Shown here piece after piece: positions 1-51,897 of a stretch of 64,000 bases of DNA (positions are counted from its first letter, which is position 1; each line of letters begins with the position of its first letter). The notes beneath the pieces are model-generated. The model searched no databases. It saw only the letters and a program-made list of their open reading frames with translations, and was not told where the DNA came from. The translations under genes were made by a program, and so were the position numbers. Origin of the DNA: Escherichia coli O127:H6 str. E2348/69 (GTDB lineage Bacteria > Pseudomonadota > Gammaproteobacteria > Enterobacterales > Enterobacteriaceae); assembly GCF_000026545.1 (NCBI RefSeq), contig NC_011601.1. One strand, written 5' to 3'.

Positions 1-1790
1 CGCTCACCGGCCGTTTTCTGCAGGCAAGTGTCATTGAACCGAATTGTAGCCTGCGTGCACAGTATCTGGCGTCACTACAAACAACGCTGCAACCCTATAT
101 GTGGAACGCGGTTATTCTTGGATTAGGTATGGGGGAACGGTTATCCGTCCCCAAAGAAATCAAAAATATCATGCGTGATACTGGAACGGCGCATTTAATG
201 GCAATATCAGGATTGCACATCGCTTTTGCGGCGTTGCTGGCTGCAGGACTCATTCGCGGTGGGCAAGTTTTTCTGCCTGGGTGCTGGATCCACTGGCAAA
301 TGCCATTAATTGGTGGAATCTGCTGTGCTGCTTTTTATGCCTGGCTTACGGGAATGCAACCTCCTGCATTGCGTACTGTGGTGGCGCTTGCCATTTGGGG
401 AATGCTTAAGTTAAGTGGACGACAATGGAGTGGCTGGGATGTATGGATATGTTGTCTGGCGGCAATTTTGCTGATGGATCCTGTTGCCATTCTCTCGCAA
501 AGTTTATGGCTCTCTGCCGCTGCGGTCGCGGCACTGATTTTTTGGTATCAGTGGTTTCCCTGTCCGGAGTGGCAGCTGCCGCCGGTATTGCGCGCGGTTG
601 TTTCCCTCATCCATCTGCAACTGGGAATCACCCTCCTGCTTATGCCCGTGCAAATTGTCATATTTCATGGCATTAGTCTGACCTCATTTATTGCAAATCT
701 TTTTGCAATTCCCCTGGTGACATTTATCACGGTTCCGTTGATTCTCGCCGCGATGGTTGTGCATTTAAGCGGGCCGTTTATTCTGGAACAAGGGGTATGG
801 TTTCTTGCCGACCGGTCTTTGGCTTTACTTTTCTGGGGGTTAAAGAGTTTGCCGGAAGGGTGGATCAACATTGCTGAACGTTGGCAATGGCTAACATTTT
901 CCCCATGGTTCTTACTGGTGGTATGGCGATTAAACGCCTGGCGAACGTTGCCAGCAATGTGTGTGGCTGTAGGCTTGCTGATGTGCTTGCCGCTGTGGCA
1001 AAAACCTCGACCTGACGAGTGGCAAGTGTACATGCTTGATGTCGGGCAAGGGCTGGCAATGGTCATTGCGCGAAACGGCAAAGCGATTCTCTATGACACG
1101 GGACTGGCCTGGCCCGAAGGGGATAGTGGGCAACAACTGATTATCCCCTGGCTCCACTGGCATAATCTTGAACCGGAAGGCGTTATTTTGAGTCATGAAC
1201 ATCTGGATCACCGGGGAGGGCTGGACTCAATATTGCACACATGGCCGATGTTATGGATCCGAAGTCCGTTAAACTGGGAACATCATCAGCCCTGTATGCG
1301 TGGCGAAGCGTGGCAATGGCAAGGATTGCGTTTCAGCGCGCACTGGCCTTTACAAGGAAGCAACGATAAAGGAAATAACCATTCCTGTGTGGTTAAGATT
1401 GATGACGGGACGAATAGCATTCTTCTAACCGGTGATATTGAAGCCCCCGCTGAACAAAAGATGCTAAGCCGTTACTGGCAGCAAATGCAGGCAACATTAC
1501 TTCAGGTACCTCACCATGGCAGTAATACCTCATCATCGTTGCCATTAATTCAGCGAGTGAATGGAAAAGTGGCACTCGCATCGGCATCGCGCTATAACGC
1601 ATGGCGACTGCCCTCAAGCAAAGTTAAACATCGCTATCAACAACAGGGTTATAAGTGGCTTGATACTCCACATCAGGGTCAAATAACGGTCAATTTTTCA
1701 GCGCAAGGCTGGTGGATTAGCAGCCTCAGAGAGCAAATTTTACCTCGTTGGTATCATCAGTGGTTTGGCGTGCCAGTGGATAACGGGTAG
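1..1790 (+). CDS. ycaI: ComEC/Rec2-family competence protein homolog, C-terminal part (5' end lies upstream of the window)
   Basis: ORF 99..1790 runs open to the window edge in the same frame; polytopic membrane region followed by a metallo-beta-lactamase-like domain with SHEHLDHRGG motif; position immediately upstream of msbA as in E. coli. Confidence 0.85.
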   Translation, partial: LTGRFLQASVIEPNCSLRAQYLASLQTTLQPYMWNAVILGLGMGERLSVPKEIKNIMRDTGTAHLMAISGLHIAFAALLAAGLIRGGQVFLPGCWIHWQMPLIGGICCAAFYAWLTGMQPPALRTVVALAIWGMLKLSGRQWSGWDVWICCLAAILLMDPVAILSQSLWLSAAAVAALIFWYQWFPCPEWQLPPVLRAVVSLIHLQLGITLLLMPVQIVIFHGISLTSFIANLFAIPLVTFITVPLILAAMVVHLSGPFILEQGVWFLADRSLALLFWGLKSLPEGWINIAERWQWLTFSPWFLLVVWRLNAWRTLPAMCVAVGLLMCLPLWQKPRPDEWQVYMLDVGQGLAMVIARNGKAILYDTGLAWPEGDSGQQLIIPWLHWHNLEPEGVILSHEHLDHRGGLDSILHTWPMLWIRSPLNWEHHQPCMRGEAWQWQGLRFSAHWPLQGSNDKGNNHSCVVKIDDGTNSILLTGDIEAPAEQKMLSRYWQQMQATLLQVPHHGSNTSSSLPLIQRVNGKVALASASRYNAWRLPSSKVKHRYQQQGYKWLDTPHQGQITVNFSAQGWWISSLREQILPRWYHQWFGVPVDNG

Positions 1791-28261: not shown

Positions 28262-28453
28262 AAAATGCCGGATGCGACGCTTGACGCGTCTTATCAGGCC
28301 TACAAGTCCGTTGAAAATGCTGGTTTTGTAGGCTGGATAAGGCGTTCACGCCGCATCCGGCAGCCGTGCCCAAATGCCTGATGCGACGCTTGACGCGTCT
28401 TATCAGGCCTACAATCCGTTGAAACTGCTGGTTTTGTGTGCCACATCCGGCAT
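28262..28453. repeat. REP/BIME-type repetitive extragenic palindromic cluster (two tandem copies of a composite unit)
   Basis: Near-identical blocks gatgcgacgcttgacgcgtcttatcaggcctacaa at 28270-28305 and 28379-28414, each followed by ccgttgaaa(a/-)tgctggttttgt; internal inverted REP ggctggataaggcgttcacgccgcatccggcag. Confidence 0.75.
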
Positions 28454-32691: not shown

Positions 32692-32927
32692 ACTCTCTCC
32701 TTATAACCAATTGTTCTTTTTTTGTTAACATTGATAACAATTCGGTCAGTCTGACAGAGGGCGTCCGCGAGTCGAAATGATTTATCTGAGGAAGAAAAGC
32801 CAAAAAAAGCATAAAAAAAGCGCAATAAGAAAACGTTTGCTATTTATTGCCGCAGGTCAATTCCCTTTTGGTCCGAACTCGCACATAATACGCCCCCGGT
32901 TTGCACACCGGGAATCCAGGAGAGTTC

Positions 32928-33938
32928 ATGTACTACCCCTTCGTTCGTAAAGCCCTTTTCCAGCTCGATCCAGAGCGCGCTCATGAGTTTACTTTTCAGC
33001 AATTACGCCGTATTACCGGAACGCCGTTTGAAGCACTGGTGCGGCAGAAAGTGCCTGCGAAACCTGTTAACTGCATGGGCCTGACGTTTAAAAATCCGCT
33101 TGGTCTGGCAGCCGGTCTTGATAAAGACGGGGAGTGCATTGACGCGTTAGGCGCGATGGGATTTGGATCGATCGAGATCGGTACCGTCACGCCACGTCCC
33201 CAGCCAGGTAATGACAAGCCGCGTCTCTTTCGTCTGGTAGATGCCGAAGGTTTGATCAACCGTATGGGCTTTAATAATCTTGGCGTTGATAACCTCGTAG
33301 AGAACGTAAAAAAAGCCCATTACGACGGCGTTCTGGGTATTAACATCGGCAAAAATAAAGATACGCCGGTGGAGCAGGGTAAAGATGACTATCTGATTTG
33401 TATGGAAAAAATCTATGCCTATGCGGGATATATCGCCATCAATATTTCATCGCCAAATACCCCAGGATTACGCACACTGCAATATGGTGAAGCGCTGGAT
33501 GATCTCTTAACTGCGATTAAAAATAAACAAAATGATTTGCAAGTGATGCACCATAAATATGTGCCGATCGCAGTGAAGATCGCGCCGGATCTTTCTGAAG
33601 AAGAATTGATCCAGGTTGCCGATAGTTTAGTTCGCCATAATATTGATGGCGTTATTGCAACCAATACCACACTCGATCGTTCTCTGGTTCAGGGAATGAA
33701 AAATTGCGATCAAACCGGTGGCTTAAGTGGTCGTCCGCTTCAGTTAAAAAGCACCGAAATTATTCGCCGCTTGTCACAGGAATTAAACGGACGCTTGCCG
33801 ATTATTGGTGTTGGCGGCATTGACTCGGTTATCGCTGCGCGTGAAAAGATTGCTGCGGGTGCCTCACTGGTGCAAATTTATTCTGGTTTTATTTTTAAAG
33901 GTCCGCCGCTGATTAAAGAAATCGTTACCCATATCTAA
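32928..33938 (+). CDS. pyrD: Dihydroorotate dehydrogenase (quinone) PyrD (336 aa)
   Basis: ORF-track entry starts at 32901; ATG at 32928 gives [22 protein letters not shown]-terminus and 336 aa. Confidence 0.95.
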
Positions 33939-48202: not shown

Positions 48203-48424
48203 ATGTAAAGTCTACAACGTAGTTGAAAACTTACAAGTGTGAACTCCGTCAGGCATATGAAAAAAAAGTCTTGTATAAGGTACGTTTAATCTTTTTTGTC
48301 AGCGACAATTTACAGAAGAAAATCGCGGAAACCGCTTCAGACAAGCCTCCGCAAGGAAAATTAGTCACGACTGAAAGCATTGGCTGGGCGATAAAAAAAG
48401 TTCCAGGATTAATCCTAAATTTAC

Positions 48425-48934
48425 TTAATGATACAAATTAGAATGAATTTTTAGCCCGGAAAGTTGTCTCGTTGCGTGAGAGGATGCGCTTACCGGACGC
48501 ATAATAAACCCCATAGCGTTACCTTCATTTGCCGCATCAACAAGTTCAGCATGCTCTTCTGCAGTCAAATCATCTGCCAACCAACCGATCACCACGCTGT
48601 AATTGCCCGTGCGTAAAGCGCGAACCATTGACTCCACGGTGTGGCAAGGGGAGAGCTGGCTAATCTGCATTACTTTCGTTAAGGGTAGCCCAGATGCCTG
48701 AACCCATTCGCGACTCAGTTTTTGTTGCGGTGTTAACCAGAGTTGCCAGCGCGATTGCTGACCGAGTTGCTGTAACAATGGCAACAGTAGAAGTTGCGTC
48801 ATCATGGGCTGATCTTCGCGATAGACAACTTCACTGATAAGCCCGGCTGTAGTGTTTTCCGTAGAGACACGCGCAATTTTGCTTGCTGCGGATGAGAACG
48901 ACGAATCACGATGTGCATAGCCTGAAGTGTACAT
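48425..48934 (-). CDS. sulA: SOS cell-division inhibitor SulA (169 aa)
   Basis: ORF-track entry extends to 48991; ATG at 48934 (minus) gives [19 protein letters not shown]; LexA box immediately upstream. Confidence 0.95.
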
Positions 48935-48955
48935 AATCAATCCAGCCCTGTGAGT

Positions 48956-48975
48956 TACTGTATGAATATACAGTA
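48956..48975 (-). promoter_or_regulatory. LexA (SOS) box in the sulA promoter
   Basis: Perfect palindrome TACTGTATGAATATACAGTA (CTGT-N8-ACAG consensus), 22-41 nt upstream of the sulA ATG. Confidence 0.9.
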
Positions 48976-49151
48976 TATCCAGTGACGACAAAGATCAACC
49001 CTATTTTCGGAAAGAGCCTCGCAAATTTTGTCGTTGGTGGCGGGAAAACATAAATTAATCTTGCCCCTTAAGAATAAGTTGCCTATTTTCGTAGTTAACG
49101 GATCCGTTAATGTGAATCATTCTTTTATGTTATGATTTTAAAAGGAATTTT

Positions 49152-49781
49152 ATGAAAAGCCTCTCCTATAAGCGGATCTATAAATCACAAGAATACCTGG
49201 CAACGTTGGGCACAATTGAATACCGATCATTGTTTGGTAGTTACAGCCTGACCGTTGACGACACGGTGTTTGCGATGGTTTCTGATGGTGAGTTGTATCT
49301 TCGGGCTTGTGAGCAAAGTGCACAGTACTGTGTAAAACATCCGCCTGTCTGGCTGACATATAAAAAGTGTGGCCGATCCGTTACCCTCAATTACTATCGA
49401 GTTGATGAAAGTCTATGGCGAAATCAACTGAAGCTGGTGCGTCTGTCGAAATATTCTCTCGATGCAGCGCTGAAAGAGAAAAGCACGCGCAATACCCGGG
49501 AAAGACTGAAAGATTTGCCCAATATGTCTTTTCATCTGGAAGCGATTCTCGGGGAGGTGGGGATTAAGGATGTACGGGCGTTACGTATACTTGGGGCAAA
49601 AATGTGTTGGTTGCGACTGCGGCAGCAAAACTGTCTGGTGACAGAAAAGATTCTGTTTATGCTTGAAGGGGCCATTATCGGCATTCATGAAGCTGCGCTC
49701 CCGGTGGCACGCCGCCAGGAGCTTGCAGAATGGGCTGACTCTCTTACGCCAAAACAGGAGTTTCCTGCGGAACTTGAGTAA
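49152..49781 (+). CDS. sxy: Competence regulator Sxy/TfoX (209 aa)
   Basis: 209-aa ORF starting MKSLSYKRIYKSQEYLATLGTIEYRSLFG (TfoX N- and C-domains); 3' end overlaps the convergent yccS. Confidence 0.9.
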   Translation: MKSLSYKRIYKSQEYLATLGTIEYRSLFGSYSLTVDDTVFAMVSDGELYLRACEQSAQYCVKHPPVWLTYKKCGRSVTLNYYRVDESLWRNQLKLVRLSKYSLDAALKEKSTRNTRERLKDLPNMSFHLEAILGEVGIKDVRALRILGAKMCWLRLRQQNCLVTEKILFMLEGAIIGIHEAALPVARRQELAEWADSLTPKQEFPAELE

Positions 49782-51897
49782 TCTGGCGTTGCAGACGACC
49801 AATCTCTGGCAGTAATGCAATCAATAACCCAACTTGTTGTACGACCAGAGGTTCTTTGCTGTCTGCCCGTGGTTCAAGTTGCTGCATCCGCTGTTTCAGG
49901 CCAGCTAATGCCTGATTGACGCGTTCTTCATCAGCAGGTTGATGATGTAGCGCGTCATCAACATAGCAAACTGCGTCATCAAGAAACGCCAGAATTTCAG
50001 GATTAGTTAACTGCTCCCGGTGAGCACCGAGGGCTGAGATATAGCTGGTAAACGTATGGTTAAGGCACAGCAACCGAAACGCGGCTTCGCGAATTTGCGG
50101 GGTAACGTTCGGTTCGCTGGACATATTTGATACCACCGACGCCAGTTCAGCATCACGGTTGTGTGCATCGCGGCGGGCAATACGATACGCCAGACGGTTA
50201 TCACGCCCCTGATGGTATTGCTCCAGTATGGCATCGAGATACCGACAGTTGGCCTCGGTGGCGCGTTCGAGCATTCGCGGCAGATTGCGAAACTTCCAGT
50301 CAGGCCAGATGTAGCTCACTGCAGCCCACGCAATGGCACAACCAATCAGCGTATCGATTACGCGAGGTAACGCCACTTCAAAACCTTCACCCAGCAAGTT
50401 GAAACACAGTAGCACCAAAAGTGTGATGAACATCGTTGCATGGGCGTATTGCACGTTACGGAAGGCAAAAAAGAGCACGCCGGTAATAACCAGCAGCACC
50501 AGCTGCCCTTCCAGTGATGGCACAAACCACAGCACAGGAATGCCAATTGCGATACCTACCAGCGTACCAATAATCCTTAACTTCAGGCGGTGGCGCGTGG
50601 CGTTATAGTTTGGCTGGCAGACAAACAAACTTGTCAGCAAGATCCAATACCCGTGATGCATTCCGGTTATCTGAATGATGGCGTAGCCGAAGCACAACAC
50701 CAGCGACATTCTTACTGCATGACGGAAGAGGGCGGATTCCGGCGTGAAGTGACGGCTAAGACGCAGCCAGATATCACTCAATCCGTGCGGGCTGTCATCA
50801 GCGAGCTCATTTTCGTCATTATTATGGGGCAGTGCCTGGGCCTGTTCTGATTCAATTGTTGCCAGTTGGGCATCAATGGCACGTAAATTGTTCAGTAAAA
50901 ATCCCAGTGTTTTGAGTAAATCAGCAGGAGCGCCGTTATCGCGCATCCGCTCCAGCGCAGCATCAATATGCGTAAAAGCGCGCTCAAAATGCGGATCATG
51001 TTGATAAGGCTGACGCAGCAAAATACAGCGTGACAGTTGCTGGCACGCCTGGCCCTGCATCGACATCAGCCGCTGAAAACGGAACAGCACGTCGCTGTGG
51101 CGAAAATGTTCACGCAATGTTTGATATTGAATATGAGAAGAGCTGGCACGCTCGTGAATATCCTGTGCGACAAAGTAATAATGCAGTGTGCGACGCGTTC
51201 CCCGTTGACCACGATCGCCACGTAAGCGGGTCAGCAGCGAGAGTTTCGTCTGATTCAATGTCGCCATCAGCTGACCGTTGGCGAGAGCCAAATCGTACAG
51301 CGGTGCCTGGCTTTCATCTTCAATATCAGGATCAAACATGCGCGACTTGAGCTCAAGATAACGCGCCAGTTGTTCATAGCAACGCGCCAGGTTGTCCTGC
51401 AGCGGGCGGACCGGGAACAGCAGATGACCAATAAGTGTCAGGACGTTGTACCAGACGGCACCGGCCAGAAGATACATCGGCTGCTGATACCAGTGCTCAT
51501 ACAGTGATGTTCCCAACATAGTGTAAATGGCGATCAGCAATGCACCGAAGGCAATTGTTGCATAGCGTTGACCCAGACCGCCGAGCAAAATGAAGCCGCT
51601 GGTAGAGAGCGTTAAGCCAATCGCAAATAGCCAGGGCCAGGGAAACAGCAATTCTACTGAGGCTGAGGCGATAAAAAAGCAGAACAGCGTAATGATGAGG
51701 TTACGCAAACGTCCCGCCAGTCGGTCATCGAGATCGGTCAGCGCCGCTGCCACCATCCCCAGCGTCAGCGGAATCGTCAGTTTTACATCACCCAGCCACC
51801 ACGGAAACGCTGTGGTTCCACAAAGCGCAATAAAAATACGCGCGTAATACAGCCAGGCGCTGTTCCAGGTATAGCGTTTGAGCAAAGGACTTAGCAT
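49744..51897 (-). CDS. yccS: Inner membrane protein YccS (about 717 aa)
   Basis: Large polytopic membrane ORF; the track gives 720 aa (start 51906, MAFMLSP); recalled protein starts at MLSPLLKRYTWN (51897). The true start is uncertain by 9 nt. Confidence 0.8.
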   Translation of the reverse strand: MLSPLLKRYTWNSAWLYYARIFIALCGTTAFPWWLGDVKLTIPLTLGMVAAALTDLDDRLAGRLRNLIITLFCFFIASASVELLFPWPWLFAIGLTLSTSGFILLGGLGQRYATIAFGALLIAIYTMLGTSLYEHWYQQPMYLLAGAVWYNVLTLIGHLLFPVRPLQDNLARCYEQLARYLELKSRMFDPDIEDESQAPLYDLALANGQLMATLNQTKLSLLTRLRGDRGQRGTRRTLHYYFVAQDIHERASSSHIQYQTLREHFRHSDVLFRFQRLMSMQGQACQQLSRCILLRQPYQHDPHFERAFTHIDAALERMRDNGAPADLLKTLGFLLNNLRAIDAQLATIESEQAQALPHNNDENELADDSPHGLSDIWLRLSRHFTPESALFRHAVRMSLVLCFGYAIIQITGMHHGYWILLTSLFVCQPNYNATRHRLKLRIIGTLVGIAIGIPVLWFVPSLEGQLVLLVITGVLFFAFRNVQYAHATMFITLLVLLCFNLLGEGFEVALPRVIDTLIGCAIAWAAVSYIWPDWKFRNLPRMLERATEANCRYLDAILEQYHQGRDNRLAYRIARRDAHNRDAELASVVSNMSSEPNVTPQIREAAFRLLCLNHTFTSYISALGAHREQLTNPEILAFLDDAVCYVDDALHHQPADEERVNQALAGLKQRMQQLEPRADSKEPLVVQQVGLLIALLPEIGRLQRQITQVPQETPVLA

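Follow-up and report, generated by a model that had tools for sequence, protein, structure and literature searches.

The closest described counterpart of the locus analysed here is its own equivalent in Escherichia coli K-12, in which the divergent gene pair sulA and sxy, the SOS box of sulA and the CRP-S site of sxy are all already known, and which E. coli O127:H6 str. E2348/69 carries nearly unchanged. In the textbook arrangement of K-12, LexA bound over the -10 hexamer and the start site of sulA blocks RNA polymerase. Repression by LexA at the K-12 sulAp has been shown by reporter footprints, for the K-12 allele of the box (bioRxiv 10.1101/2025.05.13.653802). On the sxy side, autoregulation through a CRP-S site has been described (Jaskolska & Gerdes 2015; Sondberg et al. 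2019), RegulonDB lists a CRP-Sxy complex, and the requirement of sxy activation for both cAMP-CRP and Sxy has been published for a K-12 sequence identical to that of E2348/69. According to Sondberg et al. (2019), in the sxy CRP-S site TGCGA is the half nearer to the promoter and TTCCG the distal one, and activation depends on activating region 1 of CRP and is hence class I-like.

Further afield, E. coli sxy resembles the sxy/tfoX genes of Haemophilus influenzae and Vibrio in encoding a TfoX-family regulator under CRP control for which a structured leader has been proposed. The likeness does not extend to the details, since the tfoX promoters of Vibrio carry canonical CRP-N sites whereas E. coli sxy has a CRP-S site, and the stem in the 5' UTR of H. 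influenzae has genetic support, whereas the leader structure of E. coli sxy was not significant in our analysis. The divergent uvrA-ssb pair, which carries an SOS box, resembles sulA-sxy in having a LexA box between divergent genes. In that pair, however, the box lies among the promoters of ssb, whereas in sulA-sxy it lies far upstream of the sxy promoter. Like sxy, ssb is reportedly also a member of the CRP-S regulon. In one source, ssb shows little SOS control despite its box (PMC9505508).

The window studied here is the whole stretch of 64,000 nucleotides (64 kb) of contig NC_011601.1 that was analysed. An earlier sequence-only reading had noted that sulA, for the SOS inhibitor, and sxy, for a competence regulator, share a 217-bp intergenic region in this window; the observation is correct and the biology ordinary. 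What the spacer very probably holds is two independent, back-to-back promoters, tightly packed into a conserved 217 bp, with LexA acting on sulA only.

The sulA-sxy pair and its relatives

The genes that concern us are the following:

48425-48934, minus strand: sulA coding sequence, 169 aa, SOS-induced cell-division inhibitor, with its ATG at 48934 (open reading frame and annotation)
49152-49781, plus strand: sxy (tfoX) coding sequence, 209 aa, CRP co-activator (open reading frame and annotation)
1-1790, plus strand: ycaI (ComEC family), partial, the 3' 1790 of 2265 nt, cut by the window edge

Coordinates and domain content agree with the earlier proposal that sulA on the minus strand and sxy on the plus strand diverge from starts 217 bp apart, the spacer between them being 48935-49151. 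The sulA product matched the NCBIfam equivalog NF007892 end to end (residues 1-169; 273 bits versus a cut-off of 162) as well as Pfam PF03846 (SulA), and Sxy matched Pfam TfoX_N (PF04993, 89.6 bits) and TfoX_C (PF04994, 93.5 bits), with no match to Sxy among the NCBIfam models. The window matches the E2348/69 chromosome at 100% identity, and the annotation of this genome gives the gene order ompA, sulA, sxy, yccS. The 3' end of the convergent yccS overlaps the 3' end of sxy by 38 bp (49744-49781), as it also does in K-12, where sulA occupies 1020410-1020919 and sxy 1021138-1021767, with a spacer of 218 bp.

The same reading had counted two intact competence genes, sxy and ycaI. This stands for the genome as a whole, where the source annotation gives ycaI as intact with 754 aa, but not for the window, which opens 475 nt into ycaI and holds 595 aa of it, the N-terminal 158 codons lying outside. 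The part within the window is open from its first in-frame codon and encodes Competence and Lactamase_B domains. Farther along, ssuE directly adjoins pyrD (32692-32927), while K-12 has a 7-kb fimbrial operon, elfADCG-ycbUVF, between these two genes, and the distance from ycaI to sulA is shorter in E2348/69 because this operon is missing. Rfam matches elsewhere in the window were naRNA4 (28331-28409), the PyrD leader (32860-32933) and a tRNA annotated as tRNA-Ser (59643-59727).

Overall, 31 related loci were compared. A scan with the Sxy protein, taking one genome per species, yielded 20 usable close loci from Escherichia, Citrobacter, Intestinirhabdus, Enterobacter and Lelliottia, to which Salmonella was added to give 21, and a distant set was formed from Sxy homologues with 32-47% identity. 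sulA and sxy are divergent neighbours in 21/21 close loci, with a spacer of 216-218 bp, and likewise in K-12. Among 11 representatives, invariant columns make up 46% of the spacer versus 10-12% of the third codon positions of sulA and sxy. In the comparison of the 31 loci, the modules follow a conserved order of LexA box, sulA -35 TTGATC, CRP-S and the sxy hexamers TTGCCC-17-TATTTT. On the sulA side, the invariant blocks comprise the ribosome-binding region, both arms of the LexA box and AAAGATCAAC (48990-48999) at the sulA -35, the last of these being unchanged in 21/21 close orthologues. Within CRP-S the blocks ATTTTC.GAAA and TCGCA are invariant and the N6 between the half-sites varies. Toward sxy, an invariant ATCTTGC falls within the TTGCCC hexamer, a conserved block spans AAGTTGCCTATTTT with its AAGT and CTAT strictly invariant, the block ATAAGTTGCC lies just upstream of the sxy -10, and an invariant TGATTT is found inside the near-invariant TATGATTT.

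At greater distance the pairing of sulA and sxy is kept in Tatumella, Rosenbergiella and Providencia and in four contigs. In one of the latter, L030, the outer flanks differ and the spacer measures 416 bp, the extra DNA lying downstream of the sxy -10, in the leader. Enterobacteriaceae bacterium ESL0689 (L027) is without sulA and the LexA box and has CRP-S and TTGCTA-17-TATTTT at the same spacing, and Rosenbergiella (L029) keeps sulA and the LexA box with no recognisable TCGCA half-site upstream of sxy (2294-2500). In the place of the absent sulA, both ESL0689 (L027, 1709-2500) and Plesiomonas (L031, 1830-2500) have a long gene-free gap. One further match, a 276-bp contig (L022) 98% identical to the E. 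coli Sxy protein, comes from an assembly labelled Alkalicoccobacillus porphyridii and is probably a contamination of that assembly.

The LexA box and the sulA promoter

The sulA side of the spacer contains:

48956-48975: LexA (SOS) box, TACTGTATGAATATACAGTA, or TACTGTATATTCATACAGTA in the orientation of sulA
48970-48998, minus strand: sulA core promoter, with -35 TTGATC (48998..48993), a 17-bp spacer and -10 TACTGT (48975..48970)
48935-48963, minus strand: predicted sulA 5' leader of about 29 nt, its start site being placed from the position of the -10

As a LexA operator we counted CTGT-N8-ACAG inside a 20-bp, palindrome-like TACTGTATATATATACAGTA. The box fits CTGT-N8-ACAG exactly, as do its 8+8 palindromic arms the palindrome, and to this extent the perfect box that the sequence-only reading had placed at 48956-48975 is borne out. 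CTGT-N8-ACAG occurs a single time in the 64-kb window, at the sulA box; the minimal motif alone is not significant, with 0.66 occurrences expected by chance and at least one present in 49 of 100 shuffles. The form with 16 specified bases, TACTGTAT-N4-ATACAGTA, has 0 mismatches at the sulA box, and allowing up to three mismatches it is expected 0.09 times and was present in 8/100 shuffles. The four central bases of the box differ from the idealised LexA consensus.

The -10 hexamer TACTGT is made up of the first six bases of the LexA box as read on the sulA strand, and the centre of the box falls at about -2.5 from the predicted start site (near 48963); on these coordinates, the box would cover both the -10 and the start site. 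The Shine-Dalgarno region GCTGGA corresponds to the block 48941-48946, which is invariant in the 11 representative species. The arms of the box are kept in 21/21 close orthologues and in 7 distant sulA-bearing loci (Tatumella, Rosenbergiella, Providencia, L030 and L036-L038), and the box is conserved in Escherichia, Citrobacter, Salmonella, Intestinirhabdus, Enterobacter, Lelliottia, Tatumella, Rosenbergiella and Providencia. Our analysis bears on the sequence of this promoter and its conservation. As in the textbook account of K-12, PsulA (TTGATC-17-TACTGT) would drive sulA leftwards, and a LexA dimer on 48956-48975 would block RNA polymerase by covering the -10 and the start site. DNA damage would then lead to RecA-stimulated self-cleavage of LexA and to the release of sulA, whose product would block FtsZ.

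The sulA promoter of E2348/69 resembles that of K-12 in the gene itself, in the promoter hexamers and in the position of the box. The box alleles differ, TACTGTATGAATATACAGTA in E2348/69 versus TACTGTATGGATGTACAGTA in K-12, by two central bases, the centre reading GAATA in E2348/69 versus GGATG in K-12, and there is also a C-to-T change at 48976, beside the box, as well as a 1-bp deletion in the sulA leader. The E2348/69 allele is rare, being found in 41 of 5426 complete E. coli genomes, and the K-12 allele is found in at least 3637; no more than 3 genomes carry the whole 69-bp haplotype. E. albertii and the other Escherichia loci except MOD1-EC7003 share the E2348/69 form of the box, as do two Lelliottia and the distant contig L038.

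The CRP-S site, the sxy promoter and the sxy leader

The sxy side of the spacer contains, all on the plus strand:

49005-49026, plus strand: CRP-S 22-mer, with the core CGGAA-AGAGCC-TCGCA at 49008-49023 and its centre at 49015.5
49037, plus strand: start of sxy transcription as published, at a G that precedes the ATG by 115 bp (Sinha & Redfield 2012)
49061-49089, plus strand: predicted sxy core promoter, with -35 TTGCCC (49061-66), a 17-bp spacer and -10 TATTTT (49084-89)
49095-49110, plus strand: perfect 16-bp palindrome TTAACGGATCCGTTAA with a GATC centre, beginning 6 nt after the sxy -10
49142-49146, plus strand: AAGGA, Shine-Dalgarno sequence of sxy, separated from the ATG by 5 nt

The sequence-only reading had failed to find a CRP-S site by eye, but one is present at 49008-49023 and is, base for base, the site that was mutated in published work. 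A CRP-S site was understood as one TGCGA half-site (with C at position 6) together with a weaker second half-site 6 bp away, and the spacer holds just such a pair, CGGAA (49008-49012) and TCGCA (49019-49023), 6 bp apart, which on the minus strand read as distal TTCCG and proximal TGCGA. The mutagenic primers DDsxy, PPsxy and PDsxy of Sondberg et al. (2019) alter exactly these two pentamers, within a wild-type context of ...CCCTATTTT-CGGAA-AGAGCC-TCGCA-AATTTTG... By itself the pattern is undistinctive, with 12 sites in the window scoring at least 9/10 and 13% of spacer shuffles reaching at least 8/10, and we identify the site because of its literal match to the experimentally altered bases and its conservation. 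K-12 and E2348/69 have the same 16-bp core, CGGAAAGAGCCTCGCA, with the same flanks, and over the stretch from CRP-S to the sxy ATG the two strains differ by one base. The best canonical CRP-N match in the spacer, at 49128-49143 (7/10), overlaps the ribosome-binding region and was taken as a chance match.

The same reading had expected the sxy promoter and its leader in the rest of the spacer, and here it was right; the conserved hexamers of the predicted sxy promoter lie at 49061-49089. These hexamers are conserved with zero indels between them in 21/21 close orthologues, and the start site predicted from them is at about 49096-49097, giving a leader of about 55 nt. Shimada (2014) lists an identical hexamer pair for sxy and flags the spacer as bound by H-NS. 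A generic scan of 48300-49900 for sigma-70 promoters and terminators returned no promoter in the spacer, those of sulA and sxy both falling below its threshold. The Shine-Dalgarno sequence of sxy is kept as AAGG or AGGG in the sequences from Escherichia, Citrobacter and Intestinirhabdus and is not kept in the Enterobacter MAG or in Lelliottia (TGGTGA).

The geometry of CRP-S and the hexamers is constant. Measured from the centre of CRP-S, the sxy -35 begins after exactly 45.5 bp in eight lineages, among them E. coli, L027, L028, L030 and L036-L038, and after 35.5 bp in Providencia, where the distance is shorter by one helical turn. Fixed and helically phased spacing of this kind is to be expected of an upstream activator site and its promoter. 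It would put CRP-S of E. coli at about -81.5, which is compatible with class I activation and in line with the requirement for activating region 1 of CRP (Sondberg et al. 2019). The figure of -81.5 refers to the start predicted from the hexamers; counted from the published start, CRP-S lies at -21.5, and the conserved spacing with its 10-bp step favours the former position. Activation of sxy is already published, and what we infer here is the arrangement of CRP-S relative to Psxy, and the only addition to the published CRP-S is how this distance compares among relatives (45.5 bp from the -35, or a helical turn closer in Providencia). On this arrangement, cAMP-CRP and Sxy would bind the asymmetric site at 49008-49023 and activate Psxy in a class I-like manner, resulting in positive autoregulation, and a weak Psxy (TTGCCC-17-TATTTT) would drive sxy rightwards.

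The published start at -115, which is given in the Discussion of Sinha & Redfield (2012) with the data not displayed, is in conflict with the conserved promoter as predicted here. The leader of sxy, which the sequence-only reading had taken to be long, would measure 115 nt by the published mapping and about 55 nt by the conserved hexamers. The base at 49037 is a G in both E2348/69 and K-12. An RNA end at this position could be either a processing product, or due to the plasmid context, or the start from a second, Sxy-independent promoter.

Conversely, 49037 could be taken as the sole real sxy promoter, with TTGCCC...TATTTT, the palindrome and TATGATTT acting at the RNA level within a 115-nt leader through which translation is controlled, as in H. 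influenzae. We consider this unlikely. It is true that the -115 G was published together with a predicted stem-loop similar to the ones in H. influenzae and V. cholerae (Sinha & Redfield 2012), that RNAalifold pairs the leader GGAUCC (49100-05) with the coding GGAUCU (49174-79), with the Shine-Dalgarno sequence and the AUG in between, as well as AAAUCAU with AUGAUUU just before the Shine-Dalgarno sequence, and that the coding segment GGATCTAT of sxy is invariant among the aligned genera. However, a start at 49037 puts CRP-S at -21.5, from where it would be unable to activate, and 49037 falls in the least conserved stretch of the spacer (49027-49050), with no conserved -10 or -35 upstream of it. 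Moreover, a spacing of exactly 45.5 or 35.5 bp from CRP-S to TTGxxx is the geometry of an activator and its promoter, not of an RNA structure. The folding results point the same way: minimum free energy folding gave z = -0.99 for the 115-nt leader and z = +0.12 for the leader of about 58 nt, that is, no thermodynamic signal, and although about 81% of cells were paired in the leader-to-coding helix and the local hairpin (RNAalifold, explicit pair counts), covariation for the two was no better than in shuffles, which neither supports nor excludes the structure. A search of the whole window against Rfam with gathering thresholds returned nothing in the spacer.

With sxy transcribed from the conserved hexamers, as we prefer, the palindrome would lie at the very beginning of the transcript. 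A palindrome as long was found in 33 of 5000 spacer shuffles. In Salmonella the palindrome measures 14 bp, and ESL0689 has TTAGTGGAACCACTAA at the same offset as the E2348/69 palindrome, so that the arms differ by two compensatory changes; the variants in Citrobacter are C-to-T changes, with G-U pairs still possible. The left arm, TAACGGATC, is near-invariant across genera, and the CGGA in it strictly so. The pattern may point to a hairpin where the sxy mRNA begins, although the covariation counts are not significant, and an alternative pairing of the palindrome with the invariant coding GGATCT (49174-79) is, on the modelled structures, equally possible. The start site of sxy and the palindrome bear on the question of why competence in E. 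coli stays off, no natural inducing condition for E. coli sxy being known in the literature.

GATC (Dam) sites occur inside three of the conserved blocks, at 48993 (sulA -35), 49101 (the centre of the palindrome) and 49175 (the coding GGATCT). Those at 48993 and 49175 are kept in all close orthologues, and that at 49101 is lost in two Citrobacter loci (L009 and L012). A short upstream reading frame, MILKGIL (49132-49155), has seven codons and a TGA stop that overlaps the sxy ATG (ATGA). Its own ATG (49132) is invariant except in one close orthologue, Lelliottia nimipressuralis (L020); considered as a regulatory upstream reading frame, it was rejected as a conserved one, its frame and length changing in Citrobacter and Lelliottia.

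Shared control or independent promoters

The 20-mer of the LexA box ends at 48975, 29 bp from the CRP-S 22-mer (49005) and 85 bp from the sxy -35 (49061), and because of these gaps the box overlaps neither of them. The published Psxy reporters that were built with primers PDsxy, PPsxy and DDsxy start at the K-12 position corresponding to 48975 and so do not contain the LexA box, and the PD Psxy construct is still induced by Sxy (Sondberg et al. 2019). Together with the separability of the two modules in ESL0689 (L027) and Rosenbergiella (L029), these findings do not support the notion, put forward in the sequence-only reading, of a control region that is shared in a regulatory sense. LexA would then act on sulA alone, the anatomy of the spacer giving it no direct access to Psxy, and we infer from this anatomy that LexA has no influence on sxy in the native chromosome. 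The accessible literature yielded no paper linking sxy/yccR to LexA or SOS, and no test of sxy expression in lexA mutants.

It could be argued nevertheless that the LexA bound at 48956-48975 has a repressing or modulating effect on the sxy promoter as well, which would make sxy a cryptic SOS gene. The LexA box and Psxy do lie in one 217-bp spacer of conserved length, the centre of the box would be at -71.5 if sxy starts at 49037, and some genes are linked to both regulons, such as the SOS gene sbmC, which is 6-fold induced by Sxy. We regard such direct sharing as highly improbable, considering the two gaps, the Sxy-inducibility of reporters that do not carry the box, the silence of the accessible literature on a sxy/yccR-LexA link, and the fact that ESL0689 keeps the sxy promoter module after the loss of sulA and the box. 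In addition, LexA is not known to work from an upstream site.

A more indirect coupling could run through the polymerase at sulA, in which derepression of sulA and binding of CRP-Sxy would interfere with or stimulate each other, by competition for alpha-CTD or through the supercoiling that divergent transcription generates. Counted from the sulA start, CRP-S extends from -63 to -42 with its centre at about -52.5, inside the zone of polymerase alpha contacts, and the sulA -35 and the CRP-S 22-mer are just 6 bp apart. Moreover, six distant lineages keep 47-53 bp between the centres of the LexA box and CRP-S, and this despite a 200-bp longer sxy leader in L030 or an altered distance from CRP-S to the -35 in Providencia, and sulA and sxy remain paired where the outer flanks differ (L030). 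The argument is, however, purely geometric, and a constant distance is equally expected from tight packing with no dispensable DNA between the elements. That CRP-S or the LexA box persists alone in L027 and L029 also weighs against coupling, and at -52.5 a CRP site has the wrong helical phase for activation of either the class I or the class II type. All in all, we judge this coupling to be improbable, and keep to two independent promoters packed back to back.

A more elaborate reading would combine these elements, such that the LexA box, PsulA, CRP-S and Psxy form one functional unit in which the polymerase at derepressed sulA gates the autoactivation by Sxy, with the repeat at 49095-49110 as a silencing operator or hairpin. 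We hold this to be very unlikely. If it were true, the unit would link DNA damage to the competence regulon, and the inverted repeat at 49095-49110 would explain why sxy has stayed silent in every laboratory condition tried to date.

One further feature was seen on the sulA side of the region. The only sigma-70-like match there, GTGAGA-18-CATAAT at 48476-48505 on the plus strand, lies antisense inside the 3' end of sulA, and no plus-strand terminator was detected between this match and sxy. The match may relate to the stationary-phase antisense transcript described over sulA (Conway 2014).
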